From Candidatus Marinacidobacterium sp. (GTDB taxonomy: Bacteria; Acidobacteriota; Vicinamibacteria; Marinacidobacterales; Marinacidobacteraceae), in the NCBI GenBank assembly GCA_965202845.1, contig OZ241856.1:1027159-1091158 (forward strand): DNA of 64,000 nt. The letters are read 5' to 3'. This document shows, piece by piece, positions 858-64,000 of the stretch (within the stretch, counting starts at the first letter, position 1; each line of letters begins with the position of its first letter). The notes beneath the pieces are model-generated. The model ran no database searches. It was not told the DNA's origin and saw nothing but the letters and a program-made list of their open reading frames with translations. A program made the position numbers and the translations under genes.

Positions 858-863
858 TGCCGA

Positions 864-3911: not shown

Positions 3912-3914
3912 TTC

Positions 3915-13571: not shown

Positions 13572-13578
13572 GCGCGGC
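13072..13578 (+). repeat. Direct repeat copy 2 (~505 bp)
   Basis: See copy 1. Begins about 30 bp after the res stop. Confidence 0.9.
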
Positions 13579-23507: not shown

Positions 23508-23575
23508 GATGCTTGGCGCAGCGGAGGGTGTCGAACGCGGGAACGACGTTCAGGCGTGGTCCGATCCCATTAGAC
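23508..23575 (-). repeat. Degenerate duplicate of the 5' end of the DUF1640-like gene
   Basis: About 80% identical to 23411..23478 (cttggcg[ct]agcggagggtgtcgaacgcggg...). The copy lacks ATG. Confidence 0.5.
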
Positions 23576-23588
23576 TGCATGCCCGACC

Positions 23589-24161
23589 ATGTCCGCGCGC
23601 CATCTCGTCCTCGGCAATCCGCTCGCTCCCCCCTGGCCTGCGGGAACGGAGGAGAGCTTCTTCGGGATGGGGTGTTTCTGGGGCGCCGAACGCCTCTTCT
23701 GGGAGACGGACGGCGTCCACGTCACCGCGGTGGGCTACGCCGGGGGAACCGCCGTGAACCCCACGTACCGCGAGGTCTGCTCGGGGCGCACCGGGCACGC
23801 GGAGATCGTCCGGGTGGCGTTCGATCCGGGGCGCGTCGCCTACGAGGAGCTGCTCCGGCGGTTCTGGGAGAACCACGATCCCACCCAGGGGATGCGACAG
23901 GGGAACGACGTCGGGGCCCAGTACCGGTCGGCGCTCTACACGGTGGGGGCGGCGCAGCGGGAGGCGGCGCTCCTCTCCCGCGATCGCTTCCAGGAGCGGC
24001 TGCGCGAAGCGGGGTACGGGGCGATCACCACCGAAATCCGCGAAGCGCCGGACTTCCACTACGCGGAGGAGTACCACCAGCAGTACCTCGTCCGGAATCC
24101 CGACGGCTACTGCGGCCTCGCCGGAACCGGGGTCTCCTGTCCGGTGGGCGTCGTCGGCTGA
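23589..24161 (+). CDS. msrA: Peptide methionine sulfoxide reductase MsrA
   Basis: GMGCFWGAE signature. 190 aa. Confidence 0.9.
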
Positions 24162-39623: not shown

Positions 39624-39702
39624 AGGGGAAAAACTCTCCTTCGGAACAGGCCGGGAATCCTACCAGCGACCCGGAAGAACGCAGCGCGGTACGCTTGCGG
39701 GC

Positions 39703-40593
39703 ATGGCCAGCCGGGCGGCGCTTTCCCTCGTGGTCGCCGGCGCCCTCCTGCTCCCGCTCGCCGGCGCGGCGGCGTGGCTTCTGCGCTCCCCGGCCGTCCC
39801 GCTCCCGGAACCGTCGGGCGCCGCCGGGGAGCGCCGCGCCCGCACCCAGCAGTTCACCGCCGACCGGCTGCGCCAGATGCTCGCCGAGGCCACCGGGGAG
39901 GCGGGAGGGCGGGGGGATTCGCCCCGGGAAGCCCCCTGGCGCGCCGGTCACGATTTCTACTTCACCCGGGCGGTCTATTCCGGGTACGCATGGCGGGGCT
40001 GGCACGTGGACTACCCGAAGGCGGACCGGCAGTTCCTGATCGGGGTGCGGCGGCTCACCAACCTGGACGCCTACGCCATGGAAAACCGTGTCCTGCTCAC
40101 CGACCCCGACATCGGCCGCTTCCCGTTCCTCTACGCGGTGGAAGTGGGGTACATGGCGATGGGCGAAGCCGAAGTCGCCGGTCTGCGGCGCTATCTCCGG
40201 TCGGGAGGCTTCCTGGTGGTGGACGATTTCTGGGGAACCGCCGAGTGGGCGAACTTCGCCCACGAGATGAGCCGGGCGCTCCCCGAATACCGCATCGAGG
40301 ACATCCCGCTCGACCACCCGATCTTCCGCTCCTTCTACCAGGTGGACGAGGTGGTCCAGGTTCCCAACGTGGGGAACGGCATCCGCGGCGGCCCCACCTG
40401 GGAACGCGACGGCTATGTCCCGGCGGTGCGGGGCATCTTCGACGAGGAGCGCCGGCTGATGGTGGTCATCAACTGGAACACCGATCTGGGAGACGCCTGG
40501 GAATGGGCGGAAAACCCCTGGTATCCGCTCCACTTCTCCAACTACGCGTACGAAATGGGGGTCAACTTCATCATCTACGCGATGACCCACTGA
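39703..40593 (+). CDS. DUF4159 domain protein (Bat-cluster associated), paralog 1
   Basis: Signal peptide. GGFLVVDDFWGTAEW...GVNFIIYAMTH, paralogous to 46433..47242. Confidence 0.6.
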   Translation: MASRAALSLVVAGALLLPLAGAAAWLLRSPAVPLPEPSGAAGERRARTQQFTADRLRQMLAEATGEAGGRGDSPREAPWRAGHDFYFTRAVYSGYAWRGWHVDYPKADRQFLIGVRRLTNLDAYAMENRVLLTDPDIGRFPFLYAVEVGYMAMGEAEVAGLRRYLRSGGFLVVDDFWGTAEWANFAHEMSRALPEYRIEDIPLDHPIFRSFYQVDEVVQVPNVGNGIRGGPTWERDGYVPAVRGIFDEERRLMVVINWNTDLGDAWEWAENPWYPLHFSNYAYEMGVNFIIYAMTH

Positions 40594-40603
40594 CCCGCTT
40601 GAC

Positions 40604-42931: not shown

Positions 42932-43890
42932 CGCACTTCCTCGCGCTGGCGCCCATCACGGTGCTCATCGTCGCCGGGGTCGGCGGGGAAGCCGCCTATC
43001 GCGACCAGTTCTCCGGCTGGGCGGCCGAGCTCTGTTCCGCGGCGCGGGGCGTCCCGAATCCGCCCCGGGTGCGGGTTCTGACCGAGCGGCTTCCCGAAGG
43101 CGGGGAGGGCGGCCCCTGCCAGCCGGTCGGACGCAGCACTGCGGAGACCATCCGGGCCGAGCTGGACGCGGTCCCGGACCCGGAGGCTGGACTGTTCCTG
43201 GCGCTCATCGGGCACGGCAGCGCGACGACCGGACGGGGACCCCGCTTCCACCTGCCCGGCCCCGACATCGCGCCCGAAGACCTGGGGGGGATGCTGGAGC
43301 GGTTCGCCGGGGCGCCGGTGACGGTGGCCCATCTGGGAAGCGCCGCCGGCGCCTTCGTTCCGGCGCTCTCGGCGCCCGGACGGGTGGTCATCGCCGCCAG
43401 TCGCGCGCACGAAATCCACGCCACCCGCTTCGCCGGCCATTTCGTGGCGGCGTTCGCTTCAGTTGAAGATGGCGGCGGCGCCGCCGACCGCGACCGGGAC
43501 AACCGGATCTCGGCGCTGGAGGCGTTCGAATTCGCCCGAACCGAAACCGAGCGCGCCTATCGGGACGCCGGACTGCTGATGACCGAGCACCCGCTGCTGG
43601 ACGACGACGGGGACGGCGCCGGAAGCGGCCTTCCGGGAAGCGCGGACGCTTCCGACGGGGCTCTGGCGGCCCGCACCCATCCCTTCGGGGACCCGGATCG
43701 CCTCCTCGCCGGGGGAGAGGAGCTTCGCGCCCTGGTCAGGGAACGCGACGATCTGGCGGCGCAAGTGGACGCCTTGCGGGCGCTCCGCGCCGAATTCGAG
43801 GACGAGGAGGACTACTTCGCCCAGCTCGAGGAGATTCTGTTGCGGATCGCCGGGATCGAGGAGCGGATCGCCACGATCCGACCGGATTGA
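42928..43890 (+). CDS. Hypothetical protein (Bat-cluster)
   Basis: GTG overlaps the upstream stop as GTGA. N-terminal TM segment and acidic coiled-coil C-terminus. Sits in the same frame as the run-on ORF 40612..43890. Confidence 0.4.
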   Translation: MTHFLALAPITVLIVAGVGGEAAYRDQFSGWAAELCSAARGVPNPPRVRVLTERLPEGGEGGPCQPVGRSTAETIRAELDAVPDPEAGLFLALIGHGSATTGRGPRFHLPGPDIAPEDLGGMLERFAGAPVTVAHLGSAAGAFVPALSAPGRVVIAASRAHEIHATRFAGHFVAAFASVEDGGGAADRDRDNRISALEAFEFARTETERAYRDAGLLMTEHPLLDDDGDGAGSGLPGSADASDGALAARTHPFGDPDRLLAGGEELRALVRERDDLAAQVDALRALRAEFEDEEDYFAQLEEILLRIAGIEERIATIRPD

Positions 43891-46436
43891 TGCTCTTCCT
43901 GCTCTTCTCCCTGGCGCTGGCGCAGTCGCCGCTTGAAGAGGCGCGAAGCGCCCTCGCCGCCGGGGAGTACGAAGCCGCCGAATCCGGCTTCCGGGCGCTC
44001 CTGCCGGCGGAGGAAGCGACGCTGGGGCTCGCCGAGACGCTCCGGATCACCGGTCGCTACGAGGACGCGATCCAGGCCGCCTCCGGCCCCCATGCGCGCC
44101 TGGCCCGCGCCCGGATTCACATCGAGATCGGGGAGGACGAGCAAGCGCTCCCGCTCCTCGAGGACATCCTGGCGACGCCCGCTCTCCTCCCCTGGGACGA
44201 AACCCGCCTGGCGGCAGAGCTGGAACGCGCCGGAATCGCCGCCCGCCGGGGCGAAAACGCCCGGGAGCGGCTGGAGCAGGTTCTTGACAACTTCAACCGG
44301 ACGCCGCCCGGCGCGATCGTCGCGCCGGCGCTTCTCGTGGCGGGGCGCGCCCTGGAGCAGCTCGGTCATCTGGGAAGCGGCCTGGTGCGCGAGGCGCTCG
44401 ACGTCTTCGACCGGGCCGCCGAACAAGCGCCCAAAGCGCGGCTCCCGCGTCTTCTGGCCGCCGAACTGTTCGCCGACAAGGGCAACACCCCCGAGGCGGC
44501 GAAGGAGTTCGGGAGCGTTCTGGAGGCCAATCCGAACGACCCCCGGGCGCTTCTCGGAATCGCCCGACTCGGCGGCGCCGAGGGGGCCGGCGCGCTGGAC
44601 GCGGCGCTGGAAGCGAACCCGCGCCACCCGGCGGCCCGGGCGCTTCGGGTGGTGCGCCTGCTGGAGGAGGACAAGACCCTGGCGGCGCTGGAGGCGGCGG
44701 AAGCGGCGGTCCGGGACCTTCCGCAGTCGCCGGACGCGCTGGGGGCCCACGCCGCCGCGCTCTTCCTGAGCGGCGACCCGGCCGGCGCCCGCGCCGTCGA
44801 GGAGCGCTTTCATGCCGCCTTCCCCGGCGACCCCCGCCTCGACCTGGGGGTGGGAGCGGCGGCCGAACGCACCCGGCGCTACCGGGAAGCGGCGGAACGC
44901 GCCGAGCGGGCGCTGACCCGGGCGCCCGATTCGATCTCCGCCTGGCGGCTGCTCGGCGTCAACCAGCTGCGCCTGGGGGACATGGAGGCCGGGCGGGCTT
45001 CGCTCGAAGCCGCCTTCGCCCGGGACCCCTTCGACGTCCTGGTCAAGAACACCCTGGACCTGCTGGACGTGCTGGACGACTTCCGGGTCGTCCGATCGCC
45101 GCCCTTCGTCTTCGTGCTGCCCCCGTCGCAGGCGGACCTGCTGCTCCCCTGGCTGGAGCAGGTCTCCCACGAAGCGCTTCGGACGTTCGGCGAGCGGTAC
45201 GGGTTCGAGCCGGACGGAACCATCCGCATCGAGGTCTACGACCGCTCGGCCGACTTCTCGGTGCGCACCGTGGGCGTGACCGGAATCGGGGCGCACGGCG
45301 TCTGCTTCGGGAACACCATCGCCTTGGAGTCGCCTTCGGCGCGCGGGGTGGGCGCCTACCACTGGACCTCGACGCTGTGGCACGAGCTCGCCCACACGGT
45401 GACAATGGGGCTGACCGGCAACCGGGTGCCGCGCTGGTTCACCGAGGGGGTGAGCCAGCTGGAGGAGCGGCGCCGCTTCGGAGACGGCGCGTCCCCGGCG
45501 TTTTACCGGGCGCTGGGCGAGGGGCGCCTGCTTTCGGTGGGCGACCTGGACGAGGGCTTCCTGCGTCCCTCCTGGCCGGGGCAGGTGGCGGTCTCCTACT
45601 ACCATTCCTCCCTGGTGCTGGAGCATATGGAGTCGGTTCGCGGCTTTCCCGCCGTCCTTTCCATGCTGGACGGCTTCGCCCGGGGCGAAACCAGCCGGGA
45701 GGCGATCCCCGCCGCGCTCGGAATCCCGCTCCAGGCGTTCGACGAGGACATCACCACCGTTCTCGAGTCCCGATTCGGCGCGGCGGCGCGGGGACTGGGC
45801 GATTCCCCGGTTCCGAAGACGCTTCCCGAAACGCTCCCGCTGGCGGAGGCCGCGCCGGAGAATTTCCTGCTCCAGCTTCGGGCCGGAACCCTGCTGGAAT
45901 CGCAAGGCCGGGACGCGGAGGCGCAGCCCTTCCTCGAGCGGGCGCTTCGGCTCGCGCCCGACTACGGGGGACTGGACGGTCCCTCGGGGGCGCTTTCCCG
46001 CATCCACGAACGGGCCGGCCGGCTCGACGAGGCGGCCCGGGCGCTCGAAAGGCGACTGGGGCGGGTTCCCGCCGACCATGAGGGCTGGCTGCGGCTCGCC
46101 GACCTCCGGGAGCGCGCCTCGAACCTCGAAGGCGCCGCCGAAGCGATGGAGGCGGCGCTTCTCGCCTGGCCGATGGACCGGGGGCCGCACGAGCGGCTGG
46201 CCGACCTGTACGCGCGCCTCGGCGACCACGCCGGCGCGATCCGGCAGCGGAACGCGGCGCTCGCCACCGATCCGCCGGACCGGGCGGGCGCCCTCTACCG
46301 GCTCGCCCTGGCGCACCACCTCGCCGGCGACGCCCGGGCCGCGCGCCGTCGGGTGCTGGAAGCGCTCGAAATCGCCCCCACGTATTCCGAAGCCCTGGAT
46401 CTCCTGCTCCGCATGCGGAAGGAGGGGGGATCGTGA
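43887..46436 (+). CDS. TPR-repeat protein with HExxH (peptidase MA-like) domain
   Basis: Many TPR-like helices. LWHELAHTV followed by FTEGVSQLEE. ATGA overlap with the upstream gene. Confidence 0.55.
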   Translation: MMLFLLFSLALAQSPLEEARSALAAGEYEAAESGFRALLPAEEATLGLAETLRITGRYEDAIQAASGPHARLARARIHIEIGEDEQALPLLEDILATPALLPWDETRLAAELERAGIAARRGENARERLEQVLDNFNRTPPGAIVAPALLVAGRALEQLGHLGSGLVREALDVFDRAAEQAPKARLPRLLAAELFADKGNTPEAAKEFGSVLEANPNDPRALLGIARLGGAEGAGALDAALEANPRHPAARALRVVRLLEEDKTLAALEAAEAAVRDLPQSPDALGAHAAALFLSGDPAGARAVEERFHAAFPGDPRLDLGVGAAAERTRRYREAAERAERALTRAPDSISAWRLLGVNQLRLGDMEAGRASLEAAFARDPFDVLVKNTLDLLDVLDDFRVVRSPPFVFVLPPSQADLLLPWLEQVSHEALRTFGERYGFEPDGTIRIEVYDRSADFSVRTVGVTGIGAHGVCFGNTIALESPSARGVGAYHWTSTLWHELAHTVTMGLTGNRVPRWFTEGVSQLEERRRFGDGASPAFYRALGEGRLLSVGDLDEGFLRPSWPGQVAVSYYHSSLVLEHMESVRGFPAVLSMLDGFARGETSREAIPAALGIPLQAFDEDITTVLESRFGAAARGLGDSPVPKTLPETLPLAEAAPENFLLQLRAGTLLESQGRDAEAQPFLERALRLAPDYGGLDGPSGALSRIHERAGRLDEAARALERRLGRVPADHEGWLRLADLRERASNLEGAAEAMEAALLAWPMDRGPHERLADLYARLGDHAGAIRQRNAALATDPPDRAGALYRLALAHHLAGDARAARRRVLEALEIAPTYSEALDLLLRMRKEGGS

Positions 46437-47242
46437 ACATCCGGACCGGCTTCCTGGCGCTCGCCGGAGCTTCCGCGCTGCTGGCGGCCGCCGCGCTGGC
46501 GCTGGGCGACGATCCGCCCCGGGCCGCCTTCCGTCCGGACCCGAACGCGGTCGAACTGCCGCTGGACTACCGGAACACCCCCTATGACCATCGGTTCTCC
46601 TTCGTCCGCATCCGCTTCGAGCCGCCGCGCTACCGGCGCGGCCCGTTCTACTGGGGCATGGACCTCAAGTGGAACCACGACTACCCGTGGGGCGAGCAGA
46701 ACCTGGGGCGCATCCTCGCCGAATACACCTCGCTCTCGCTCCACGAAGAGGGCAGCGACATCTACTCGCTGAACGAGGCGGAGCTCTTTCGCCGGCCGTG
46801 GGCGTACCTGTGCGAACCGGGCTTCTGGCATCCGAGCGACCAGGAAGCCGAGAACCTCCGCTCCTGGCTCTTCCGGGGCGGTTTCCTGGTGGTGGACGAT
46901 TTCGTCCAGAGTCGCCAGCTGGGCAACTTCATCTTCCAGATGGATCGGGTGCTTCCCGGCTACGACCTGGTGGAGCTGGACGCCGCCCACCCGGTTTTCG
47001 ACTCCTTCTTCCACATCGAGACGCTGGATTTCGAGCACGTCCAGCGCCCCGATCTGAAGCCGGTGTACTACGGCTATTTCGAGAACAACGACCCGCAGGA
47101 GCGCCTGATGGTGATCGCCAACTACAACCACGACATCGGCGATTACTGGGAGTGGTCCGGCAGCGGCTACTGGCCGGTGGACCTCACCAACGAGGCGTTC
47201 AAGCTGGGCGTCAACTACGTCATCTACGGGATGATCCACTGA
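46433..47242 (+). CDS. DUF4159 domain protein, paralog 2
   Basis: Signal peptide MNIRTGFLALAGASALLAAAALA. GGFLVVDDFVQSRQL...GVNYVIYGMIH. Confidence 0.6.
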   Translation: MNIRTGFLALAGASALLAAAALALGDDPPRAAFRPDPNAVELPLDYRNTPYDHRFSFVRIRFEPPRYRRGPFYWGMDLKWNHDYPWGEQNLGRILAEYTSLSLHEEGSDIYSLNEAELFRRPWAYLCEPGFWHPSDQEAENLRSWLFRGGFLVVDDFVQSRQLGNFIFQMDRVLPGYDLVELDAAHPVFDSFFHIETLDFEHVQRPDLKPVYYGYFENNDPQERLMVIANYNHDIGDYWEWSGSGYWPVDLTNEAFKLGVNYVIYGMIH

Positions 47243-47259
47243 AACCAAGGGAGAACCGC

Positions 47260-48306
47260 TTGATCGAACCGCTTCTCGAGGAAGAAATCGTCGAAACCAC
47301 CCCCGAAGAGAGCGACCGGGACCTCGCCGTCCGCCTCCAGGACTCGATGGCGGCCGTCACGAAGGAGATCCAGAAGGCGATCATCGGGCAGGAGGCGGCG
47401 CTGGAGCAGGTGCTGGTGAGCCTGCTGACCGGCGGCAACAGCATCATCACCGGCGTTCCCGGCCTCGCCAAGACCCTGATCATCCAGACGCTCTCGCAGA
47501 CGCTCTCGCTGGGATTCAACCGGATCCAGTTCACCCCGGACCTCATGCCGTCCGACATCACCGGCACCGACATCATCCAGGAGAACCCGGAGACCGGGAA
47601 GCGCAGCCTGGTCTTCGTCAAGGGGCCGGTGTTCACCAACATCGTGCTCGCCGACGAGATCAACCGGACTCCGCCGAAGACCCAGTCGGCGCTGCTGGAG
47701 GCGATGCAAGAGCATCAGGTCACGGTGCAGGGCCGGACCTGGCGGCTGCCCGAGCCGTACTTCGTGTTCGCCACCCAGAACCCCATCGAGCTGGAGGGCA
47801 CCTATCCGCTCCCCGAGGCGCAGCTGGACCGCTTCCTGTTCAACATCGTGATTGGCTACCTGCCGGTGGAGCAGGAGCGGGACGTGGTGCGGGCGACCAC
47901 CCGGGACGTCCGCCCGGAGCTCCGGCAGGCGCTCGACGGCGCCGACCTCATCCGGTTCCAGCGTCTCACCCGCCGGGTGCCGGTCACCGAACCGGTCCTC
48001 GCCTACGCGGTGGACCTCGCACGCCGCAGCCGGCCGGGCGCCGAAGACGCCCCCGACTTCATCAAGGAGTGGGTCGCCTACGGAGCGAGCGTGCGCGCCG
48101 CCCAGAACGTGGTGCTCGCCGGGAAGGCGCGCGCCCTGCTGGAGGGCCGGCGCCACGTCGCCATCGAGGACATCCGGGCGATGACGCCGCCGGTCTTCCG
48201 CCACCGGATCCTTCCCAACTTCCACGCCCAGTCGGAGAAGGTGGATGCGGAGGATCTGGTCGAGCGGCTGCTCAAGGCGACCCCGGCCCCGACCTCGAGG
48301 ATGTGA
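47260..48306 (+). CDS. moxR: MoxR-family AAA+ ATPase
   Basis: IIGQEAALEQVLVSLLTGGNSIITGVPGLAKT (Walker A), ADEINRTPPKTQSALLEAM, VFATQNP. Start is TTG preceded by AAGGGAG. Confidence 0.85.
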   Translation: MIEPLLEEEIVETTPEESDRDLAVRLQDSMAAVTKEIQKAIIGQEAALEQVLVSLLTGGNSIITGVPGLAKTLIIQTLSQTLSLGFNRIQFTPDLMPSDITGTDIIQENPETGKRSLVFVKGPVFTNIVLADEINRTPPKTQSALLEAMQEHQVTVQGRTWRLPEPYFVFATQNPIELEGTYPLPEAQLDRFLFNIVIGYLPVEQERDVVRATTRDVRPELRQALDGADLIRFQRLTRRVPVTEPVLAYAVDLARRSRPGAEDAPDFIKEWVAYGASVRAAQNVVLAGKARALLEGRRHVAIEDIRAMTPPVFRHRILPNFHAQSEKVDAEDLVERLLKATPAPTSRM

Positions 48307-48312
48307 GGCGGC

Positions 48313-49275
48313 GTGCCGGGAGTAGTCCAGGCGTCCGACCCGGCTGTCCGGTTCCTCGATCCGGCCACCCTGGCGCGCATCGGCAACTTGCAGCTCATCG
48401 CCCGTGCGGTGGTCCAGGGGTTCATCAGCGGCCTCCACCGCTCCACCTTCCTCGGGCGTTCGGTGGACTTCGCCGAGCATCGGCCCTACATGCCCGGCGA
48501 TGACCTCCGACGGCTGGACTGGCGCCTCTTCGCGCGCTCGGACCGGTTCCACGTCAAGGAGTTCGAGGCGGACACCAACGCCAACTTCGTGGTCGCGGTG
48601 GACATTTCGGGATCGATGGACTTCGGGCGCCGGGGCATCCGCAAGCTGGACTACGCCCGCTTCCTCGCCGCCTGCCTCGCGGCGTTCTCCCGCAGCCAGC
48701 GGGACCGGGTGGGGCTCGTCACCTTCGACGCCGCGCTCCGCGAGTTCGTGCCCCCCTCGGCGAAACACCTCGACACCGTGCTCCGCCGCCTGGCGGGCGT
48801 GAAGCCGGGACCGATGCGGAAGGAGGAGGCCGGCGATGCGGACAGCCTGGGCGGGGTGCTGGCCCGCATGGGCGCCGCCCTCCCCCGGCGCGGTCTGGTG
48901 GCGGTGGTTTCCGATTTCTACGAACCGGCCGAACAGGTGATCGCGGCGTTCGACCGGCTGCGGGCGACCGGCCACGACATCATGGCGTTCCATGTGCTCG
49001 ATCCGGCGGAGCGGGATCTCGACCTCGCCGGGGACGCTGACTTCGACGACCGGAACGCCCGGCTGCGCGACCTCGAAACCGGGGCGATCCTCGAAGTGCA
49101 GCCCGGCCGCATCCGGGAGGACTATCGGGCGCTGCTCGAGCGCCACCTCCGGGATCTGGGCGCCGGCCTGGGGCGCCGCGGCGTGGACCATGTGCTGACC
49201 GACACCGCGACCCCCCTGGACTTCGCGCTCTTCCGCTACCTGAGCGAACGCGAGGGGCGGGCGCGCGGCCGCTGA
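48313..49275 (+). CDS. DUF58 domain protein (MoxR-associated, vWA-like)
   Basis: RLDWRLFARSDRFHVKEFEADTNANFVVAVDISGSM. The usual MoxR-DUF58 gene pair. Confidence 0.75.
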   Translation: MPGVVQASDPAVRFLDPATLARIGNLQLIARAVVQGFISGLHRSTFLGRSVDFAEHRPYMPGDDLRRLDWRLFARSDRFHVKEFEADTNANFVVAVDISGSMDFGRRGIRKLDYARFLAACLAAFSRSQRDRVGLVTFDAALREFVPPSAKHLDTVLRRLAGVKPGPMRKEEAGDADSLGGVLARMGAALPRRGLVAVVSDFYEPAEQVIAAFDRLRATGHDIMAFHVLDPAERDLDLAGDADFDDRNARLRDLETGAILEVQPGRIREDYRALLERHLRDLGAGLGRRGVDHVLTDTATPLDFALFRYLSEREGRARGR

Positions 49276-49276
49276 G

Positions 49277-51364
49277 ATGGGCTTCCTCGCGCCGCTCTTC
49301 CTTTTCGGAGGCTTTCTGGTCGCGCTTCCGATCGTCCTCCACCTCACCCGCAGGAAACGGAAGCCAGTCGCGTTCCCCTCGCTCTTGTTCATGCAGCGGA
49401 TGGGACTTCCGCTCCGCGTCCGGCGACGGCGGCTCCGGAACCCGCTGCTGCTCCTCCTCCGCGCGGCGGCGCTCCTCCTGCTGGCGCTGGCGTTCGCCCG
49501 CCCGCTGCTGGAATCGGAATCGGCCGCCGACTGGATCGATCCGCCCCGGGACGTGGCGCTTCTGATCGACCGCTCGCTCAGCATGCGGATCGGCGACCGT
49601 GCGGCCGCCGCCCGTGACGCGGCGCTCGAAATTCTCGCCGGCCTCGGTCCCGCCGACCGGGCGGTGGTGGTGGCCTTCGACGACCGCCCGGAAGCGCGCA
49701 CCGAGCTCACCCTGGATCGGGAAGCGCTCCGCCGGGCGGTGGAGGCCATCCCCGGCGGGGAAGGGGGCGGCCGGTTCCCCGCCGCCCTGGGATTCGCCGC
49801 CCGGCTGCTCCCGGCGACCCCCGGCCGCCGTCGCGAGGTGGCGCTGCTCTCGGACCTGCAGCGCAGCGGATTTGACGACGGGCGCCCCGGGCAGGCGCTC
49901 CCGGCGGGAGTGGACGCCCGGGTGGTGGGAGTGGGGGCGGCGCCGGCGTCATGGGGCGCCTGGACGCACTCGGTCTCGCTGGCCCCGGAAGGGCGGAACC
50001 AGCTGGCGGCCACCGCCCGGATCGGATTCCTTCCCGGTCCGGATGGCGACTCGGTGGAGGTCGAGGCGGTTCTTGAACTCGCCGGCCGTGCGGTGGAGCG
50101 GCGGACAATCCGACTCGAAGGCCCCCGCTCCCACCAGGCGGCGACAGTCCGGTTCGCCCCGTTTGTCCGTCCGGCGGAGCCGCTGGAAGCCGAAGTCCGC
50201 ATTTCCGGCGCCCTGCCCGACTGGCTTCCGGACGACGACGTCTTCCGATTCGGAGTGTTTCCGGGGAATGCGCTTCGGGTCCGCGCCCTCGGGGGAACGC
50301 CGTCGATTCATCTGCGGGAAGCCCTTGCGGTGGGTTCCGCTCCGGCGTTCCTCCTGGAAGGCGTCCCAGCGCGCGGCGACGCCCTCGCCGGGACGGATGT
50401 CGCGCTGTCGGTCGATCCCGGACGCCTGAATCAGGGGACGGCGCGGGCGCTGGCGGAGCACGTTGAAGGCGGCGGAGGCTTGGTCCTCGGCATGGGGCCG
50501 ACGCGCGTCCGCGCCGATCTCGACGCCCTGCTGCCGGTTTCTCTCGGGGACGCGCAGGAACGCTTCCCCCCGACGCGGCTCGCAAGCCTGCTCGAACGCC
50601 ATCCGGTCTTCGCCCCCTTTGCCGGCGGGGGCGGGGCGACGGCGGCGCTCAGCGGGGCGGCTTTCCACCGGTATCGCCGGGTGTCCGGAGCGCCGCCCGA
50701 TGGAACGACGCTCGCCCGCTTCGACGACGGGAACCCGGCGATCCTCGCCTTCGAGAAGGGAGCGGGCAGGGTGGCGGCGCTCCTTTCCACCTTCGACCCG
50801 TCCTGGAACGACCTGGCGCAGCGTCCGGCGTTCGTTCCGCTGATCCATCAACTGCTGGCATGGACGGCGCGTTTCGAGGAACGCCCGATCGCATGGCGGG
50901 TGGGGCAGATCGTGGACCCGGCGCGCGCCTTCCGGCTGGACGGGGATGGAGACGTGGTGATCCGGTCCCCGTCGGGGAGCGCCCGGTCGCTGGAAGCGGG
51001 CGCGACCCTCCGGCTGGACGCCACCGGCGCCTGGGGCGCCCGCCATCCGGAGGGTGACGCCTTCCAGATGTTGCTTGCGAACCCGCCTTCCGCCGAGCTG
51101 GATCCGACGCTGCTGGATCCGGAGGAGGTGCGGGTGGCGATCCTGGCGCCGGAGCGTCCGTCCCCCGACGCCGGGGCGGAGGGCGCCGACTCCGCGCCGC
51201 CGGCGCCCCCTGCGGAAGGCGCGCGGCTGGAATGGCCCTTGCTTCTGGCAGTCGCCATGCTGCTCCTCGCCGAGGGAACGCTCGCCAGCGGCGGCCTGGC
51301 CGCGCTCTTCCGGCGCCGCCGGGCGCCCGATTCGGGTACGGTCCCGGCATCCCCTGCCCAATGA
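49277..51364 (+). CDS. batA: BatA-like membrane vWA protein, copy 2
   Basis: MGFLAPLFLFGGFLVALPIVLHLTRRKR double-TM N-domain. ALLIDRSLSMRIGD. 695 aa. Confidence 0.7.
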   Translation: MGFLAPLFLFGGFLVALPIVLHLTRRKRKPVAFPSLLFMQRMGLPLRVRRRRLRNPLLLLLRAAALLLLALAFARPLLESESAADWIDPPRDVALLIDRSLSMRIGDRAAAARDAALEILAGLGPADRAVVVAFDDRPEARTELTLDREALRRAVEAIPGGEGGGRFPAALGFAARLLPATPGRRREVALLSDLQRSGFDDGRPGQALPAGVDARVVGVGAAPASWGAWTHSVSLAPEGRNQLAATARIGFLPGPDGDSVEVEAVLELAGRAVERRTIRLEGPRSHQAATVRFAPFVRPAEPLEAEVRISGALPDWLPDDDVFRFGVFPGNALRVRALGGTPSIHLREALAVGSAPAFLLEGVPARGDALAGTDVALSVDPGRLNQGTARALAEHVEGGGGLVLGMGPTRVRADLDALLPVSLGDAQERFPPTRLASLLERHPVFAPFAGGGGATAALSGAAFHRYRRVSGAPPDGTTLARFDDGNPAILAFEKGAGRVAALLSTFDPSWNDLAQRPAFVPLIHQLLAWTARFEERPIAWRVGQIVDPARAFRLDGDGDVVIRSPSGSARSLEAGATLRLDATGAWGARHPEGDAFQMLLANPPSAELDPTLLDPEEVRVAILAPERPSPDAGAEGADSAPPAPPAEGARLEWPLLLAVAMLLLAEGTLASGGLAALFRRRRAPDSGTVPASPAQ

Positions 51365-54300
51365 GCGTTTTCGACCCTCCCGATCCCTCGGCCGCGCTCC
51401 TCGAGACCATCCGCCGGGTTCGCTCCCGCTGGCGGCTGCGGCGGGCGCTCACCGGCCTCGCCTTGGCCTTCGCCGCCTCGGTGGCGATCCTCGGGATTTC
51501 GGCATGGGCGATGGACGCCCTCCGGTACGAAATCTGGGTGGTGCGGACCTTCCAGGTTTCCGCGTGGCTGCTGGCGGCCGGCGCCCTGATCCGGTTCCTC
51601 TGGTCGCCGCTGCGCTCCCGGGTCTCCGACCGCCAGGTGGCGCTCTATGTGGAGGAGCACGACTCGTCGCTCCAGGAGACGGTGGTGAGCGGCGTCGAAC
51701 TCGGCCCCGGCCTGGATTCGGGAAAAACGGGCGAGGCGGGCGTCTCGCCGGAGCTTTCGCGCATGGTCGTGGAGGAGGCGATCCGCCGCTGCGAGGAGGG
51801 GAACATCGGAACCTCGGTGGAGTCGGCGAGCCTCCGCGGCGCCGCCTCCGCCTTCGGGTCGGCGCTGGCCGCGATCGTCGGTCTGGCGCTGCTCGCCCCC
51901 CCGGCGCTCCAGGGCGGGATGTCCCTTCTCTTCACGCCGTGGCGCGACATCGACGACGCGAATCCGTACCGCATCCACGTGCAGCCCGGCGACGCGGTGA
52001 TCGCCACCGGAAGCGACCGCTGGATCGACGCCCGGCTGGAGGGCTTCACCGCGGAGCGGGTCGTTTTGGTCACCCAGGACGCCGCCGCCCGCCGAACCCG
52101 ACAAACCTGGCCCATGCTCCCCGACCCGGAAACGGAGGGGTTCCGGCATCTCCTGCTCGGCGTCTCGGTCGCCACCGACTACTTCGTGGAAGCCGACGGA
52201 GTGCGCTCGCCGACCTGGCGGATCGAGGTCGAGGACTACCCGCAGGTGTCCCGGCTGGATCTGACCTATCGCTATCCGGCGCACACCGGACTTTCGCCCC
52301 GACTGGCGGAGGACGGGGGGGACATCGCCGCCGTCGCCGGGACCGATGTGGACGTGCTGGTCCGCGCCTCGCTCCCGGTGGATTCGGGAGCGATCCGGGT
52401 GGAGACCGCCGGAAACGAGGCCCGGGAGGTCCCGCTCCTTCCGGCGGAGGACGCCGGGGAGGGACTCCTGAAGGCGACGCTCCGGCTGGACCAGTCGGGT
52501 TCGTACCGGATCGCGCTCGCCGACGACCGGGGCCGGGTTCGCACCGCCTCCCGGGACTACGCCATCGAAGTGCTGGACGATCTCCCGCCGATCGTCCGGT
52601 TCGTGAATCCGGGACGCGACATCGAGGCGAGCGCGGTGGAGGAGGTCTTCACCGAAGCGCGCGCCGAGGACGACTACGCGATCCGGAGCCTGGAGCTCCG
52701 CTGGTCGGTGAACGGCGGCCCCGAGACGGTGGAGGCGCTCGCGGGCGCCGGCATGCGCCGCGAAATCCAGACCGGCCACACCCTCTTCCTTGAAGAGCAC
52801 GACCTGGTCCCGGGCGACCTGCTGGCCTACTACGCGGTCGCCCGGGACGGCGCCGGCGCGACCGCCTCCACCGACCTCTACTTCGTCGCCATCCGCAGGC
52901 TGGACCAGCGCTACCGCCAGGCCGACTCGATGCCGGGCGGAGGCGGCGGTCAGGATGGGGACGCGCTCGACGGAACCCTGACCCTGCGCCAGAAGCAGGT
53001 GGTGGTGGCGACCTTCAAGGCGATCCAGGAGCGTCCGCAGCTGCCGGGAACGGTGTTTTCGGAGACGGTGGCGACGGTGGGGCTGGCCCAGGGGCGCCTC
53101 CGCGAGCAGGTCGGCGCCCTGGCCCGGCGTCTGCGGAATCGGGGCATCGCCGACGCTCCCGGATTCCAGGGCATCGTCGAGGAGCTGGAGGCCGCGCTCG
53201 GGGAGATGGCGACCGCCGAAGAGCGCCTCATCGCCGGAGAGCCGGAGGCGGCGCTGCCGTCGGAGCAGAAGGCGCTGGCCCACCTGCAGCGGGCCGATTC
53301 GACCTTCGCCGAGCGCCAGGTGGGCTTCGGCGGCGGTGGAGGCGGCGGCGGCGGAGCGCCTTCCCCGCAGTCCGAGGACCTGGCACGGCTCTTCGAGCTG
53401 GAGATGGACAAGCTGCGCAACCAGTACGAAACGGTGGAGCAGCGCCAGCGCCGCTCCGCGGACGACGAGGTGGACGAGGTGATGGAGCGGCTGGCCGAGC
53501 TCGCCCGGCGGCAGGAACAGGAGAACGCCCGCCGCGGCATGGCGACGCCTCCGAACGCGCCCGGCGGGGCGGGGGGGGCGAGCCAGCGCCGGATCGCCGA
53601 GGAGACCGAGGAAGTGGCCCGCCGCTTGGAACGGCTGGCCAGGGAGCGCTCCCGCCCCGACTTGGCGGCGGTTTCGCGGCGTCTTCGGGATGCGGCGCAG
53701 CGGATGCGTTCGGCGGACGCCGGTTCCGACGGGGTTTCGAGCGGTCTTTCCGCCGCCGAGCAGCTGCGCGGGGCGCGCCGCGATCTGGACAGCCAGCGTC
53801 GGGAGCGCCTGGGGCGGGACATGGACCAGCTGGCCGACGAGGCGCGACGCCTCCGTTCGGCGCAGAACCGCATCCGCGACGAGGTGTCGGGACTCGGCGA
53901 AACCCCGGATCCGGAAACGGTGGCCGGCCTCCAGCAGCGCAAGGAGGACCTGGCCGGACGGGTCCAGGACGTCGAGCAGGAGCTGGACCGGGTGAGCCGG
54001 GAATGGCGCCGGGACGAGCCGGAGGCGGCGGAGGCGGCTGGCGAAGCGGCGCGCGGCATCCGGGACCGGAAGCTCAAGGAGAAGATCCACTACTCGCGGG
54101 GCGTGATCGCCGAGCGGACTCCGGAGTACGCCGATCAGTTCGAGGCGATGATCGCGCAGGACCTGGAATCCCTGGAAGCCGACCTGGCGCGGGCGGGAGA
54201 GGCGGCGCGGGGTTCGGAGCGGGCGGTGCGCGAAGACACGCTGGACCGGGCCGGCGCGCTGGTGCGCGGCCTCGAGGCGCTTCGGAACCGGCTCGCCGAA

Positions 54301-54708
54301 CCGACCGGAGAGGGCGAGGGACAGCAACCGTCCGACGGCGCCGGCAGGCAGCTGGGGCGCGAGCTGGAGCGACGCCTCGCGGAAGCGGAGGGGCTCCGGC
54401 AGGCGCTCGGAAGGGAGGGGAACGGCGGCCCGCTCGGCCCGGAGCGGCTGGACGGAGCGCTTCAGGCGCTGCGGGGACTCTCGCCGGGCGACCTGCTCGG
54501 CGACCCGCGCGCGGTGGAGCGCCTGGAATCGGAAGTGCTGGACGCCCTCCGGGAGTTCGAGTTCGACCTGCGCCGGCTGGTCTCGGGCGAGACGGAGACC
54601 GACGCGATCGCAACCGGCGCCGAACGCGCCCCCGAAGGCTACGAGGAGATGGTGGAGGCGTACTTCCGGGCGCTCGGCCGGGCCGAACCGGAACCCCGCC
54701 CCGAGTGA
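51361..54708 (+). CDS. Large membrane protein with extended coiled-coil C-terminus (Bat-cluster)
   Basis: ATGA overlap with the batA stop. N-terminal TM helices, then about 600 aa rich in E, R, A and L. Confidence 0.5.
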   Translation: MSVFDPPDPSAALLETIRRVRSRWRLRRALTGLALAFAASVAILGISAWAMDALRYEIWVVRTFQVSAWLLAAGALIRFLWSPLRSRVSDRQVALYVEEHDSSLQETVVSGVELGPGLDSGKTGEAGVSPELSRMVVEEAIRRCEEGNIGTSVESASLRGAASAFGSALAAIVGLALLAPPALQGGMSLLFTPWRDIDDANPYRIHVQPGDAVIATGSDRWIDARLEGFTAERVVLVTQDAAARRTRQTWPMLPDPETEGFRHLLLGVSVATDYFVEADGVRSPTWRIEVEDYPQVSRLDLTYRYPAHTGLSPRLAEDGGDIAAVAGTDVDVLVRASLPVDSGAIRVETAGNEAREVPLLPAEDAGEGLLKATLRLDQSGSYRIALADDRGRVRTASRDYAIEVLDDLPPIVRFVNPGRDIEASAVEEVFTEARAEDDYAIRSLELRWSVNGGPETVEALAGAGMRREIQTGHTLFLEEHDLVPGDLLAYYAVARDGAGATASTDLYFVAIRRLDQRYRQADSMPGGGGGQDGDALDGTLTLRQKQVVVATFKAIQERPQLPGTVFSETVATVGLAQGRLREQVGALARRLRNRGIADAPGFQGIVEELEAALGEMATAEERLIAGEPEAALPSEQKALAHLQRADSTFAERQVGFGGGGGGGGGAPSPQSEDLARLFELEMDKLRNQYETVEQRQRRSADDEVDEVMERLAELARRQEQENARRGMATPPNAPGGAGGASQRRIAEETEEVARRLERLARERSRPDLAAVSRRLRDAAQRMRSADAGSDGVSSGLSAAEQLRGARRDLDSQRRERLGRDMDQLADEARRLRSAQNRIRDEVSGLGETPDPETVAGLQQRKEDLAGRVQDVEQELDRVSREWRRDEPEAAEAAGEAARGIRDRKLKEKIHYSRGVIAERTPEYADQFEAMIAQDLESLEADLARAGEAARGSERAVREDTLDRAGALVRGLEALRNRLAEPTGEGEGQQPSDGAGRQLGRELERRLAEAEGLRQALGREGNGGPLGPERLDGALQALRGLSPGDLLGDPRAVERLESEVLDALREFEFDLRRLVSGETETDAIATGAERAPEGYEEMVEAYFRALGRAEPEPRPE

Positions 54709-60699: not shown

Positions 60700-61152
60700 T
60701 CAGGGCGCCGGCTTCGGCGCCCTGCCGTGCACCGGGAAGTGGTTCAGGCCGAGCCGGGCGGCGGCCCGGTCGGTCTGATCCACCACCGCTGCGGCGTTGA
60801 TGCCGATGGCGATGGCGATGGCCTCGCTGATCTGCTCCTTGGACGCCCCCGCCTCGAGCGCCTTCTGGATGTGTCCGTCGAGGCACCCCTCGCACTTCGC
60901 CAGCAGCGAGCAGGCGATTGCGATGAGCTCCTTGTTCAGGGTGTCAATCGTGGATTCGGGAGAGAAGTAGCTCTCCTTGTAGAACCGCCCGTAGATGACC
61001 TTCAGCCGCGGTTCGATCATCGTGTACGACGAGACCGGCCCCCCCTGCCGCCGGGGCGCTGCCTCCTCCGCCGTCGCCGGGGGCGACTCCTCTTCCGGCT
61101 GGAAGTCGATTCCCGGAATGCGGGGTTCCGCTACCGCGTCCTGATGCGCCAT
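60700..61152 (-). CDS. AhpD-like carboxymuconolactone decarboxylase-family protein
   Basis: ACSLLAKCEGCLDGH CxxC...H core. About 150 aa from ATG at 61152. Confidence 0.65.
   Translation of the reverse strand: MAHQDAVAEPRIPGIDFQPEEESPPATAEEAAPRRQGGPVSSYTMIEPRLKVIYGRFYKESYFSPESTIDTLNKELIAIACSLLAKCEGCLDGHIQKALEAGASKEQISEAIAIAIGINAAAVVDQTDRAAARLGLNHFPVHGRAPKPAP
60702..60723. terminator. GC-rich perfect hairpin between convergent genes (possible bidirectional terminator; no U-tract)
   Basis: AGGGCGCC-GGCTTC-GGCGCCCT, 8-bp stem. Confidence 0.3.
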
Positions 61153-61181
61153 TTGAATCTCCTGGATGCCTTTCGCCCGCG

Positions 61182-61712
61182 GTGGGGCGGGGGGAGGGAA
61201 TGCTACCATTCGGGGGAACGATGGGAGCGTTCCGAGGTTCCGTGCGGCTCGCCACCCGGCTCGATCCGCTCTTCGCGTTTTTCAGCGATGCGCACAATCT
61301 CGAGGCGCTCACGCCGCCCTGGTTGCGCTTCGAGGTTCTGACGCCGGCGCCCATCCCGATGCGGCCGGGAACGCTCATCGACTACCGGCTCCGCATCCGG
61401 GGCGTTCCGATTCGCTGGCGCAGCCGGATCACCGCATGGGAGCCGCCGTTCCGCTTCGTGGACGAACAGGTTCGCGGCCCGTACCGGAAATGGGTGCACG
61501 AGCACCGCTTCGAACAGCAGACGGACGCCGCCGGCCGCGAGATCGTGATCGCGAGCGACCACGTGGACTATCGGGCGCCGGGCGGCAGGTGGATCGAACG
61601 GTTTCTGGTGACGCCCGACGTCGAGCGGATCTTCGCGTTCCGCTCGGCGGAATTGCGAAAACGGTTCGGCGAAGCGCCTCCCGCATGGCTTCCGATAAGC
61701 AATCTTATGTAA
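61182..61712 (+). CDS. SRPBCC (polyketide cyclase/COQ10-like) family protein
   Basis: About 165 aa. Composition fits a Bet v1-like fold. Start is uncertain (61182, 61200 or 61221). Confidence 0.45.
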   Translation: MGRGEGMLPFGGTMGAFRGSVRLATRLDPLFAFFSDAHNLEALTPPWLRFEVLTPAPIPMRPGTLIDYRLRIRGVPIRWRSRITAWEPPFRFVDEQVRGPYRKWVHEHRFEQQTDAAGREIVIASDHVDYRAPGGRWIERFLVTPDVERIFAFRSAELRKRFGEAPPAWLPISNLM

Positions 61713-61734: not shown

Positions 61735-62607
61735 TCAGCGGGAAGCCTCCCGGAAGGCGACCACCTCCCGGTGGAAGACGAACAGCGCGTCCAGGTCCCC
61801 GGTCGGCGACTCGAAGTTGTACGTCCGTCCGCCGCGCACCTTCAGTCGCAGGTTGTTGTTCATGTAGTCCAGCTCGAACGTCTCGGTCGCCGCGAAGGCG
61901 AGCGTGAAGGCGTCCTTGTGATCGGTTTCGTAGCGAAATCCGTCCGGGCTGGCGACCAAGGTCCCGCTGCAGGACCCGAACGCGTGCTTGTGCACCACCG
62001 CCGCCGAGACGTCGAGGCTGGGCGCCAGGTCGCCGAACTCGATGCGCACCGGAACCGGCTCCCGCTCGACGGCGACCCGACGACTCGCGACGTCGAACCC
62101 TTCGAGCGAGACGGTCAGGCCGTACTCCCCCGGCTGGAGATCGGCGATGGTCACCGGAGTGTTCCCCTTGAAGTTGCGATCCAGGAACACCATCGCGCCC
62201 GGATGGTCGCTTTCGACCACCAGCGAACCCAGCCGTTCGGTCAGCACGGCGCTGAGCACGCGGGTCCCGCCGGCCTCGATCCGCACCCGGGTCTCGAAGG
62301 GATGGTGGTTCTCCAGTTCGACCCGCACCTCGCGCTCGCCAGGCTCCAGCGCACCCCAGCGGCCGGGAAGCGTCCCCAGCCGCTCGCCGTCCAGGAAAAC
62401 GGCGGCGCCTTCGCTCCCCTCCACATGAAGCGCCCCGAAGCGCGGCGCTTCGGGCGCCGGCGGAGGCGGAGGAGCGGGTTCCGGTTCTGGCGGCGGGAGT
62501 ACGGGCGCCGGCTCCGCTTCGGGCGGCGCATCCTCCGGCGGCGCCCCGCCACAGGCGAAGCACCCGAGGACGAACGCCCCCAACCACCGAAGCAGACGGG
62601 AACTCAC
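61735..62607 (-). CDS. PEGA-domain lipoprotein
   Basis: Signal/lipobox LLRWLGAFVLGCFACGG, proline-rich linker, and PEGA-like beta domains (GEYGLTVSLEGF). GTG start overlaps the upstream stop. Confidence 0.55.
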   Translation of the reverse strand: MSSRLLRWLGAFVLGCFACGGAPPEDAPPEAEPAPVLPPPEPEPAPPPPPAPEAPRFGALHVEGSEGAAVFLDGERLGTLPGRWGALEPGEREVRVELENHHPFETRVRIEAGGTRVLSAVLTERLGSLVVESDHPGAMVFLDRNFKGNTPVTIADLQPGEYGLTVSLEGFDVASRRVAVEREPVPVRIEFGDLAPSLDVSAAVVHKHAFGSCSGTLVASPDGFRYETDHKDAFTLAFAATETFELDYMNNNLRLKVRGGRTYNFESPTGDLDALFVFHREVVAFREASR

Positions 62608-63098
62608 TGGGAAATCGCTCCCACCGTGCGCCAGGCGGCCCGGTGGTAGACCAACGGACGGCTTTCCGGCCGCTCCACCCGGCTCGCCAGCACCGCCCCG
62701 ACGAAGAGCGTGTGATCCGCTTCCTCGTAGCGGGAGATGACCCGGCAGTCGGCCCAGGCCAGACAATCCGGAATGGAAGGCGGCTCCCCTCCCCCTCCCG
62801 TCGCGGGAACATCGGGAAACTGCTCCCGGGAATCCAGTCCCGGCTGGGCGAAGTGGCGTCCCACGAAACCCTGATCCTCGGCGAGAAGGTGAATCCGAAA
62901 ACGCCCCCGGGCGATGGCGGCATGGGCGCGCGCCCGCTTCTGGATCGAGATGAGGAACGACGGCGGATCCACGCTCAGCGAAAAGAACGCGCTCACCGTG
63001 ATGCCCCGGGGCCCCTCCTCCCCCGCCGCAGTCACCACGCTCACCGCCTGCGGAGCGTTCCGCATGAAGGCGCGGAGACCGTCAGCGGTTTCCACCAC
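62604..63098 (-). CDS. Flavin reductase-like FMN-binding domain protein
   Basis: LRAFMRNAPQAVSVVTAAGEEGPRGITVSAFFSLSVDPPSFLISIQ. 164 aa. Confidence 0.7.
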   Translation of the reverse strand: MVETADGLRAFMRNAPQAVSVVTAAGEEGPRGITVSAFFSLSVDPPSFLISIQKRARAHAAIARGRFRIHLLAEDQGFVGRHFAQPGLDSREQFPDVPATGGGGEPPSIPDCLAWADCRVISRYEEADHTLFVGAVLASRVERPESRPLVYHRAAWRTVGAISQ

Positions 63099-63110
63099 GC
63101 GCCGCGACGT

Positions 63111-63587
63111 TCAGACGGGCGTCGGCGCGTCGACGAAATCGGCCGTGTAGCTCAATTCCACCGCGCCCCGAAGGGTGTTCGCCAGCGGACAGCCGCGCTC
63201 ATGCGCCGAAAGCGCCCGCTCCGCCTCCGCGCGCTTGCCGGCGGGCAGCGCGATGCGGTAACGGATGCGGATCCGGCGCAGCGCCATCACCCCGTTCTCG
63301 TTCACGATGTCCCCCTCCACGTCCGCCGCCAGCCGGTCGGGATGGCTGGGGATCCCGCGTGCCTCGAGCGCCCGCCCGAGCGTCCCCACCATTCAACCCC
63401 CGGCGGCCGCCACCACGTAGTCGAGGGTGGCCGGAAGCTCCTCGGCGGGCTGGACTCCGTAGAAGGCGGCGATCCCGCTGTGCACGCCGAAGCGAACCGG
63501 CTGTTCGAAATCCTCGAGGAACGCCTGGCGCACCGGCCCGGCCTGCTTGACGATACGAGCGTGGCAGGTGTGGACGGTCTCGTTCAA
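63111..63587 (-). CDS. osmC: OsmC/Ohr-family peroxiredoxin with in-frame TGA at the peroxidatic Cys position (candidate selenoprotein; alternatively a nonsense pseudogene)
   Basis: Track ORFs 63393..63890 and 63111..63392 share a frame and are separated only by TGA 63393-63395. The reading is ...PAEELPATLDYVVAAAGG-[TGA]-MVGTLGRALEARGI...ALSAHERGCPLANTL. The proposed TTG start at 63587 overlaps the upstream stop as TTGA. Confidence 0.5.
63363..63380 (-). other. Stem-loop 12-30 nt 3' of the in-frame UGA (SECIS-like candidate)
   Basis: mRNA UGA AUGGUGGGGACG CUCGGG-CGGGCG-CUCGAG: 6-bp stem (one G-U pair) with a 6-nt G-rich loop. Alternative pairings with the downstream GGGAUCCC palindrome are possible. 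Confidence 0.3.
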
Positions 63588-64000
63588 TGGGAAGGGGCTC
63601 CGAAAATTTCCGGGTGGGTCGGCTTGACCGGCGCCCCCTTCCCCGCGACCGGCAGGTCGACGGTCAGGGTGGCGCTGGTGGGCGCGCTGCAGGCGTTGTC
63701 GGTACAGAGCTGGTAGCGCAGCAGGACTTCCCCGACCACCGGCTCCTCGCCGCGAACTCGCGCGTCCACCGGAATCCGGATGGCGACGCTGCCCTCGTAG
63801 AGATCGAACTCGCCCAAGCCGGAGAGATCCCGGCGAATCGGCTCGGGGTACATCGGGTCGCCCGGCGTGAACGCATCCGGCGCGGTCCATTCCGCCACGG
63901 TGGCGCTGGGCGGCTTCTCCTCCGGCCCGTAGAGATGGTAGCCGGGAGCGATTTCGGCGAGCACCGCGACCTCGAACCGGTCCCCGTCCCGGACCGCCGA
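63584..64000 (-). CDS. DsbD N-terminal (alpha) domain-like thiol-disulfide protein (5' partial; the frame stays open to the window edge)
   Basis: APGYHLYGPEE and LLRYQLCTDNACSAP match the DsbD-alpha YQGCAD..C pattern. Confidence 0.5.
   Translation of the reverse strand, partial: SAVRDGDRFEVAVLAEIAPGYHLYGPEEKPPSATVAEWTAPDAFTPGDPMYPEPIRRDLSGLGEFDLYEGSVAIRIPVDARVRGEEPVVGEVLLRYQLCTDNACSAPTSATLTVDLPVAGKGAPVKPTHPEIFGAPSH

Follow-up and report, generated by a model that had tools for sequence, protein, structure and literature searches.

OsmC-like selenoproteins have been listed since the Sargasso Sea analysis of 2005, in which three sequences belonging to COG1765 and carrying a UxxT motif were recognized (PMC1088965), and the Global Ocean Sampling (GOS) data gave five selenocysteine (Sec) forms of the OsmC-like protein against 161 Cys forms (PMC2398784). 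The reviews of 2022 and 2026 (PMC9312934, PMC13188914) still give no OsmC entry besides this protein. A sequence-only reading of the locus described here, which remarked that reports of OsmC-like selenoproteins come chiefly from metagenomic surveys, was correct on that point (PMC1088965, PMC2398784). It also drew attention to a candidate gene of this kind on the minus strand of a 64,000-nt stretch of contig OZ241856.1 from Candidatus Marinacidobacterium sp. This whole stretch is called the window below, and gene coordinates are positions within it. Our analysis suggests that the candidate is in all probability a genuine Sec-encoding gene, whose product would be one protein of 158 residues with an OsmC fold, the UGA at codon 65 being read as Sec.

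The described OsmC-like selenoprotein (COG1765/YhfA or pfam02566; NF041052, 'OsmC-related (seleno)protein') and the predicted protein of the window share the fold of the OsmC superfamily and a UGA-encoded Sec in a redox motif; Cys homologues exist for each, and both have been found by sequence analysis only. However, the window protein scores 25.2 bits against NF041052, the cut-off of which is 95, and 15 of 28 members of its own family match that model weakly, with a best E-value of 2.2e-6, no stronger than that of the window protein. The motif differs as well. In place of UxxT, the sequence is U-[LM]-[TVLI]-G-[TN], with Gly at +3 in every locus and Thr at +4. Furthermore, Sec is rare in the described family (three to five sequences, against 161 Cys forms in GOS), whereas all 84 loci compared in this study are Sec forms. 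Judged by model score and motif, the protein appears to be a selenoprotein of the OsmC superfamily that is akin in its working to the known OsmC-like selenoprotein but does not belong to the described family.

The reading frame and its active-site position

The sequence and its translation agree with the earlier statement that two minus-strand open reading frames (ORFs) in the same frame are parted only by a TGA. The gene is one frame of 158 sense codons plus a terminal stop, and the TGA at codon 65 is its sole interruption (Table 1). The peptide 5' of the TGA terminates in ...PAEELPATLDYVVAAAGG (the same segment is also written ...ATLDYVVAAAGG), and that on its 3' side opens with MVGTLGRALEARGIP (MVGTLGRAL). 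With Cys entered for the TGA, the product matches the Pfam OsmC family (PF02566) over residues 54–146 at 46.7 bits, compared with a cut-off of 27.5 (E = 4.5e-12), which bears out the OsmC-like product of about 158 amino acids that had been proposed. In the phmmer alignment to the T. thermophilus OsmC 1ukk, the TGA falls on the Cys of 'aahaGCfsmala' and Cys133 on the Cys of 'keGCPvs'. The earlier placement of the TGA at the peroxidatic Cys, with a second Cys kept downstream, is confirmed by this alignment.

Using as query the orthologue P0002, which is 53–54% identical to the window protein and has TGA at the same codon, an exhaustive HMMER search of 1.84 billion cluster representatives yielded 420 matches. 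Many of these are N-terminal fragments ending at query residue 71, or C-terminal ones beginning at residues 73–75, and these are further split Sec forms. Full-length homologues of 150–170 residues, with 29–45% identity, were also found. In an alignment of 28 full-length homologues, the Sec column contains Cys in 22 (for example P0063, P0067, P0068 and P0069), 'W' in two (P0002 and P0064) and Ser, Asp or Gly in three; the 'W' of P0064 presumably stands for TGA in the DNA, as confirmed for P0002. By the standard criterion, a selenoprotein is recognized from a catalytic position that holds Sec in some homologues and Cys in others. The second Cys column is at least 90% conserved across the Sec and Cys forms, and the Cys homologues have the same Leu or Met directly after the Cys. 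In the 28-sequence alignment, conservation stays below 90% in every Arg or Glu column. An N-terminal region, F-G-V-H-x-G-[IV]-x-x-F-Y, is specific to the family.

An AlphaFold2 model of P0002, built from the 28-sequence alignment, has a mean predicted local distance difference test score (pLDDT) of 96.4. When this model was compared with the PDB using Foldseek, the top matches were all OsmC/Ohr proteins, namely 1ukk (E = 5.9e-10), 1qwi, 2onf (template modelling scores 0.75/0.86) and YhfA (1ml8). The recoded residue, number 72 in P0002, lies within the long central helix of the model (H61–83), as does, by the sequence alignment, the peroxidatic Cys in OsmC. Sec65 of the window protein would stand at the N-terminus of this helix, in the place of the peroxidatic Cys of OsmC/Ohr, and Cys133 would take the resolving place.

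The Cys-containing OsmC/Ohr reductases (E. coli OsmC 1qwi/1nye, 1ukk, and the Ohr proteins of Xylella and Pseudomonas) thus have in common with the window protein both the fold and the two redox positions. In both, the first redox residue is located on the central helix after small residues (AAGG-U here, AHAG-C in the reductases) and the second within G-C-P, and because the redox residues occupy the same positions, a peroxidatic/resolving mechanism is expected. The difference is that Sec would replace the peroxidatic Cys. The specific models of these proteins also set them apart from the window protein, which obtains 21 bits with the OsmC model TIGR03562 (cut-off 85.8) and 21.8 bits with the SACOL1771 model TIGR03563 (cut-off 166), and has no match to the Ohr model TIGR03561. 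No other specific NCBIfam model fits among the 28 family members, and the best E-values for the OsmC, Ohr and SACOL1771 models are 1e-8 or weaker.

Conservation of the TGA among relatives

A search of approximately 5.8 billion predicted proteins gave 62 relatives, 61 of which are products of 86–96 residues that start at, or just past, the position after the TGA. Thus, gene callers truncate the family everywhere. The sole full-length relative, P0002 (Joint Genome Institute, JGI; locus L001), has 'W' in the protein and TGA in the DNA. The JGI calls for L001 and for P0064 both give Trp at the TGA, apparently with a TGA = Trp code set for the contig. Translation of TGA as Trp by JGI explains why the protein collections contain no 'full-length' Sec forms other than P0002 and P0064. 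In the first two loci fetched (L002 and L003), a 64-residue ORF ends exactly where the 'OsmC' ORF starts, and NCBI names the halves of the split gene 'OsmC family protein'. All gene calls examined for the family are wrong, consisting either of fragments of 64 and about 90 residues or of a protein with 'W' at the TGA. A dedicated model would mend several hundred genomes and enlarge the selenoproteomes of phyla such as Acidobacteriota and Armatimonadota.

Scanning one genome per GTDB species revealed 265 loci with a relative, and 80 of these were kept and combined with four fetched earlier. Whether relatives carry TGC/TGT or TGA at the Sec codon, as had been asked of this locus, is answered by the resulting 84 loci: all of them have TGA, and neither TAA, TAG nor a Cys codon ever occurs. 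The 82 distinct gene sequences, including that of the window, likewise give TGA throughout (TAA, TAG, TGC and TGT, zero). The related loci have 45–91% identity to the window protein, and the carriers come from at least eight phyla, among them Acidobacteriota, Armatimonadota, Nitrospinota, Bacillota (with the isolate Bacillus sp. EB01 among them), Methylomirabilota, Gemmatimonadota and Tectomicrobia. The closest relatives are Vicinamibacteria/Candidatus Marinacidobacterium, including metagenome-assembled genomes associated with sponges and corals. Residues on both sides of the TGA are conserved while their codons vary (T-11, D-9, G+3, A+8, L+9 and E+10 are 100% conserved); the Gly codon directly 5' of the TGA, for example, is GGC 35 times and GGT 34 times.

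These comparisons bear on whether the gene could be a pseudogene, or the product of a sequencing or assembly error, in which a private TGC-to-TGA change has struck a decaying gene. The window alone is compatible with a private mutation, as the sequence-only reading had itself cautioned. However, the same TGA with intact conserved flanks is present in 84 of 84 independent genomes and metagenome assemblies, so that a private nonsense mutation is excluded by the comparison, and the OsmC gene lies inside a tightly coupled operon. The probability of this explanation is close to nil. TGA serves as an ordinary stop in neighbouring genes, which indicates that it is not a general sense codon in this genome.

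A second alternative is that of a split gene, in which translation would stop at the TGA and restart at the adjacent ATG (TGAATG), and the two chains of 64 and 93 residues would assemble into an OsmC-like fold lacking the first catalytic residue. An ATG does follow the TGA in the window and its clade, and every gene caller gives two ORFs. Nevertheless, in 55% of the distinct sequences the next codon is one for Leu (CTG, CTC, CTT or CTA), which is no start, and since the Cys homologues show the same Leu or Met, the Met after the Sec is simply the residue of the family. A split exactly at the catalytic Cys, always by TGA and never by TAA or TAG, would be without rationale, and the nucleophile would be lost although Cys133 is conserved. 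A split gene is therefore highly improbable. For a single protein with Sec at codon 65, the fact that Sec has never been swapped for Cys over such divergence suggests that selenium confers a real catalytic advantage at an OsmC-type site, and the Sec-OsmC proteins and their Cys relatives would form a clean natural Sec/Cys pair for enzymology.

Downstream hairpins and the search for Sec machinery

A general model of the bacterial Sec insertion sequence (SECIS) element is reportedly that of Zhang and Gladyshev from 2005. One loop feature generally required by the bacterial SECIS model is a G in the first or second position. The earlier claim of a stable hairpin 12 nt 3' of the UGA holds as to presence and distance (Table 1), but the stability is no greater than that of dinucleotide shuffles, the sequence having a G+C content of 70%. 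Because folding energy is uninformative in such a GC-rich background, the case for the hairpin rests on conservation instead.

In the clade of the window (clade A), RNAalifold recovered the hairpin YUCGGGC-GGGC-GCUCGAR in 18 distinct sequences, with 99% of cells able to pair. Its basal pair changes from U:A to C:G in four sequences, that of the window included, a Phe/Leu change being coupled to a synonymous GAA/GAG change. In the other clades (clade B), a hairpin GCGCGC-UGGAR-GCGCGC is found at +19 nt; counting the pairs of this named structure in the alignment showed that 95% of cells pair, and a compensatory change from G:C to A:U occurs in three sequences. The hairpin occupies codons +5 to +10 in the window clade (loop GGGC) and codons +7 to +12 in all other clades (loop UGGAR). 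The hairpins thus begin 12–19 nt past the UGA, and the loops of both clades have a G in the first or second position.

The strongest evidence for the hairpin is synonymous constraint. In clade A, normalised codon entropy is 0.16 in the hairpin codons and 0.52 elsewhere (p = 0.009), and in clade B it is 0.23 in the stem codons and 0.74 elsewhere (p = 0.0003), while the Glu codon that makes the clade-B loop varies freely. Bacillus sp. EB01 retains a GC-rich stem, GGCGCGCUGGAGGCGCG, amid AT-leaning codons (TTA, TCA, AAA and ATA). Five loci of Terriglobia and Gemmatimonadota (L042, L054, L060, L079 and L083) fit both of these hairpins poorly, and a third one, CCCUGG-AAG-CCAGAGG, may serve in them instead.

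As in bacterial SECIS elements of the E. coli fdhF type, the hairpin is short and lies within the coding sequence, with its loop about 19–25 nt downstream of the UGA and a G in the first or second loop position; it starts 12 nt past the UGA, compared with a reported 11 nt for the minimal fdhF element. In contrast to the fdhF element, its sequence is unrelated, no bulged U is evident and its position is shifted between clades. As a predicted SelB site, the hairpin would recruit SelB with Sec-tRNA(Sec), and the ribosome would then insert Sec at the UGA and not terminate. If so, its shift between clades within a conserved protein represents a small, tidy case of SECIS turnover in coding sequence. 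The understanding of selenoproteins in general is unchanged by the present gene.

Several results weigh against a SECIS element and Sec decoding here. Folding energies did not differ significantly from those of dinucleotide shuffles in any of the comparisons (z = +1.2 for 81 nt, −0.59 for 41 nt, and −0.90, −0.51 and −0.15 for the others). When applied unaided to 58 clade-B sequences, RNAalifold gave an implausible consensus and did not recover the clade-B hairpin. The hairpins differ between clades in position and sequence and are hence not homologous across the family, and the covariation amounts to one compensatory pair per clade, each possibly a single evolutionary event. No Rfam match was obtained, either at the gathering cut-off on the whole window or at a permissive one on 63000–63700. 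As for the decoding machinery, ARAGORN detected no tRNA gene at all in the 64-kb window and no tRNA-Sec in 60 fetched loci, a Pfam scan of 30 window ORFs gave no SelA, SelB or SelD, and a scan of the window and 88 loci for signature motifs of SelA, SelB and SelD produced nothing credible. Some Acidobacteria are known to use Sec (PMC1794560).

The machinery results speak for an alternative in which the UGA is recoded to give a full-length protein lacking selenium. A tRNA-Sec-like opal-suppressor tRNA(Cys) (selC*) could insert Cys, or near-cognate read-through could insert Trp, Gly or Cys. In its favour as well, tRNA-Sec-like tRNA(Cys) species with UCA anticodons, and unusual suppressor-type tRNAs in Acidobacteria, have been described (PMC5389517). 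However, the selC* genes of that study occur in anaerobic Firmicutes, Thermodesulfobacteria, Nitrospirae and Proteobacteria, always beside a complete Sec apparatus in the same genome, and were not reported there from the phyla carrying the Sec form of the OsmC gene, OsmC(U) (PMC5389517). Cys insertion would further predict that TGC and TGT occur freely within the clade, and neither does. In contrast, SelB-dependent Sec insertion has just this signature of a TGA that is exclusive over 84 genomes and a hairpin under constraint downstream of it. Recoding without selenium seems to us improbable.

Operon, second in-frame TGA and other features of the window

The OsmC gene of the window is flanked upstream by a DsbD N-terminal-domain-like gene, to which it is translationally coupled, and downstream by flavin reductase-like and PEGA-domain genes (Table 1). 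The overlaps that the sequence-only reading gave for this operon are only partly found. The TGA stop of the DsbD_N gene does overlap the TTG start of the OsmC gene as TTGA, and the flavin reductase stop overlaps the GTG start of the PEGA gene as GTGA (62607..62604), but the OsmC stop and the flavin reductase start do not overlap, being 12 nt apart. The order DsbD_N, OsmC, flavin reductase, PEGA is common to Vicinamibacteria-type relatives (L002 and L003). On contigs of Armatimonadota and others the operon order is missing, and the OsmC(U) gene stands alone among unrelated neighbours. Thus, the operon is clade-specific, whereas the selenoprotein gene behaves as a portable unit.

Table 1. Positions, strands and characteristics of the features identified in the 64,000-nt window
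Feature	Position	Strand	Characteristics
OsmC-like selenoprotein gene (candidate)	63111..63587	-	TTG start 63587..63585; Sec codon 65; stop TGA 63113..63111; 158 residues
In-frame UGA, putative Sec codon (residue 65)	63393..63395	-	Coincides with the first active-site Cys of the OsmC fold
TGT, Cys133, putative resolving Cys	63189..63191	-	Motif ERGCP (AHERGCP); aligned to the second Cys of 1ukk
SECIS-like hairpin CUCGGGC-GGGC-GCUCGAG	63363..63380	-	7-bp stem, 4-nt G-first loop; starts 12 nt past the UGA; 5' arm 63380..63374, loop 63373..63370 (GGGC), 3' arm 63369..63363
DsbD N-terminal-domain-like gene	63584..64000	-	Pfam DsbD_N, E = 1.2e-13; 5' end cut by the window end
Flavin reductase-like gene	62604..63098	-	Pfam Flavin_Reduct, E = 3.7e-36; 12 nt after the OsmC stop; GTG start at 63098
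PEGA-domain protein	61735..62607	-	Pfam PEGA, E = 7.1e-24; probable lipoprotein signal (LGC)
DNA methylase	5292-7823	+	Within repeat-bracketed segment
ISL3 transposase	7802-9058	-	Within repeat-bracketed segment
ResIII helicase-like protein	9854-13036	+	Within repeat-bracketed segment
YhgA-like Transposase_31 gene	13286-14566		After repeat-bracketed segment

In L002, whose OsmC orthologue is 87–91% identical to the window protein, the gene order is AhpC/TSA, DsbD_N, OsmC(U), Flavin_Reduct and PEGA. The first of these genes (L002:4680-5270) also contains an in-frame TGA, at 4902-4904, and is called as a 93-residue fragment. Read through this TGA, it gives a secreted protein of 196 residues resembling peroxiredoxin (Prx) and ResA, with the sequence FFRSGGW-U-PYC, and is thus a second candidate selenoprotein of the operon. 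Such an AhpC/TSA gene (FFRSGGW-U-P-[FYH]-C) was found in 24 loci (L002 and L005–L027), in all of which it is located two genes upstream of OsmC(U). Its hairpin, GCARCUC-GGC-GAGYUGC, lies 14 nt past the UGA and shows a compensatory change from G:C to A:U. In the organism of the window, this gene would lie just past position 64000.

The W-U-P-x-C arrangement is the classic UxxC of the Prx-like and thiol-disulfide oxidoreductase-like selenoproteins (PMC1088965), a likeness that belongs to the neighbouring AhpC/TSA gene and not to the OsmC gene. Because the same genomes have two independent genes with a conserved TGA at a redox Cys, each followed by a hairpin with a G-first loop, the clade of the window organism very likely decodes Sec. 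In the Methylomirabilota locus L066, a TlpA/ResA-like gene with an in-frame TGA (FWATW-U-PFC; ~1044) is situated directly downstream of OsmC(U), a further candidate Sec neighbour with a thioredoxin fold, from another phylum.

By analogy with the Cys enzymes, we infer that the OsmC(U) protein functions as a selenol-based hydroperoxide reductase. The selenolate of Sec65 would attack the hydroperoxide and be converted to the selenenic acid, with which Cys133 would condense to form a selenenylsulfide. An external reductant would then reduce the selenenylsulfide, and in the window clade alone a candidate donor of the electrons is the flavin reductase-like protein, whose gene is translationally linked.

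A wider proposal, which is possible but which we hold tentatively, is that these proteins constitute an undescribed Sec-OsmC subfamily (U-[LM]-x-G-T ... G-C-P) that is obligately Sec-containing, occurs in several hundred species of at least eight phyla and has been broken into two ORFs in all gene calls examined. Its members in marine Vicinamibacteria-like Acidobacteriota would belong to a redox operon with two selenoproteins, made up of a secreted Sec-Prx-like protein, a DsbD-alpha-like protein, Sec-OsmC, a flavin reductase and a PEGA lipoprotein, which may represent an unstudied selenium-dependent peroxide/disulfide relay.

Among the other genes of the window, a CMD/AhpD-like protein with the motif C-E-G-C is encoded about 1.8 kb from the OsmC operon (60703-61281, minus strand). 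CMD-like proteins are a known selenoprotein family (CxxU), and here both positions are Cys. Two more genes of the window relate to oxidative stress. MsrA (23574-24158, plus strand) is also a Cys form, with an uninterrupted ORF that matches PMSR from profile position 3, and a di-haem cytochrome c peroxidase is encoded at 38559-39659 on the minus strand. The region 39496-54705 on the plus strand contains large genes with DUF4159, DUF58/VWA and DUF4175 domains, between which are large ORFs with no Pfam match (40586-42928; also 585-5270), and this run resembles a BatA/Bat-like cluster of the aerotolerance type. Finally, a 300-nt direct repeat, 99% identical between its two copies (4774-5073 and 13072-13371), flanks an 8.3-kb segment of lower third-position GC. 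With its DNA methylase, transposase and helicase-like genes (Table 1), the segment looks like an inserted restriction-modification/mobile island, or is possibly an assembly duplication.

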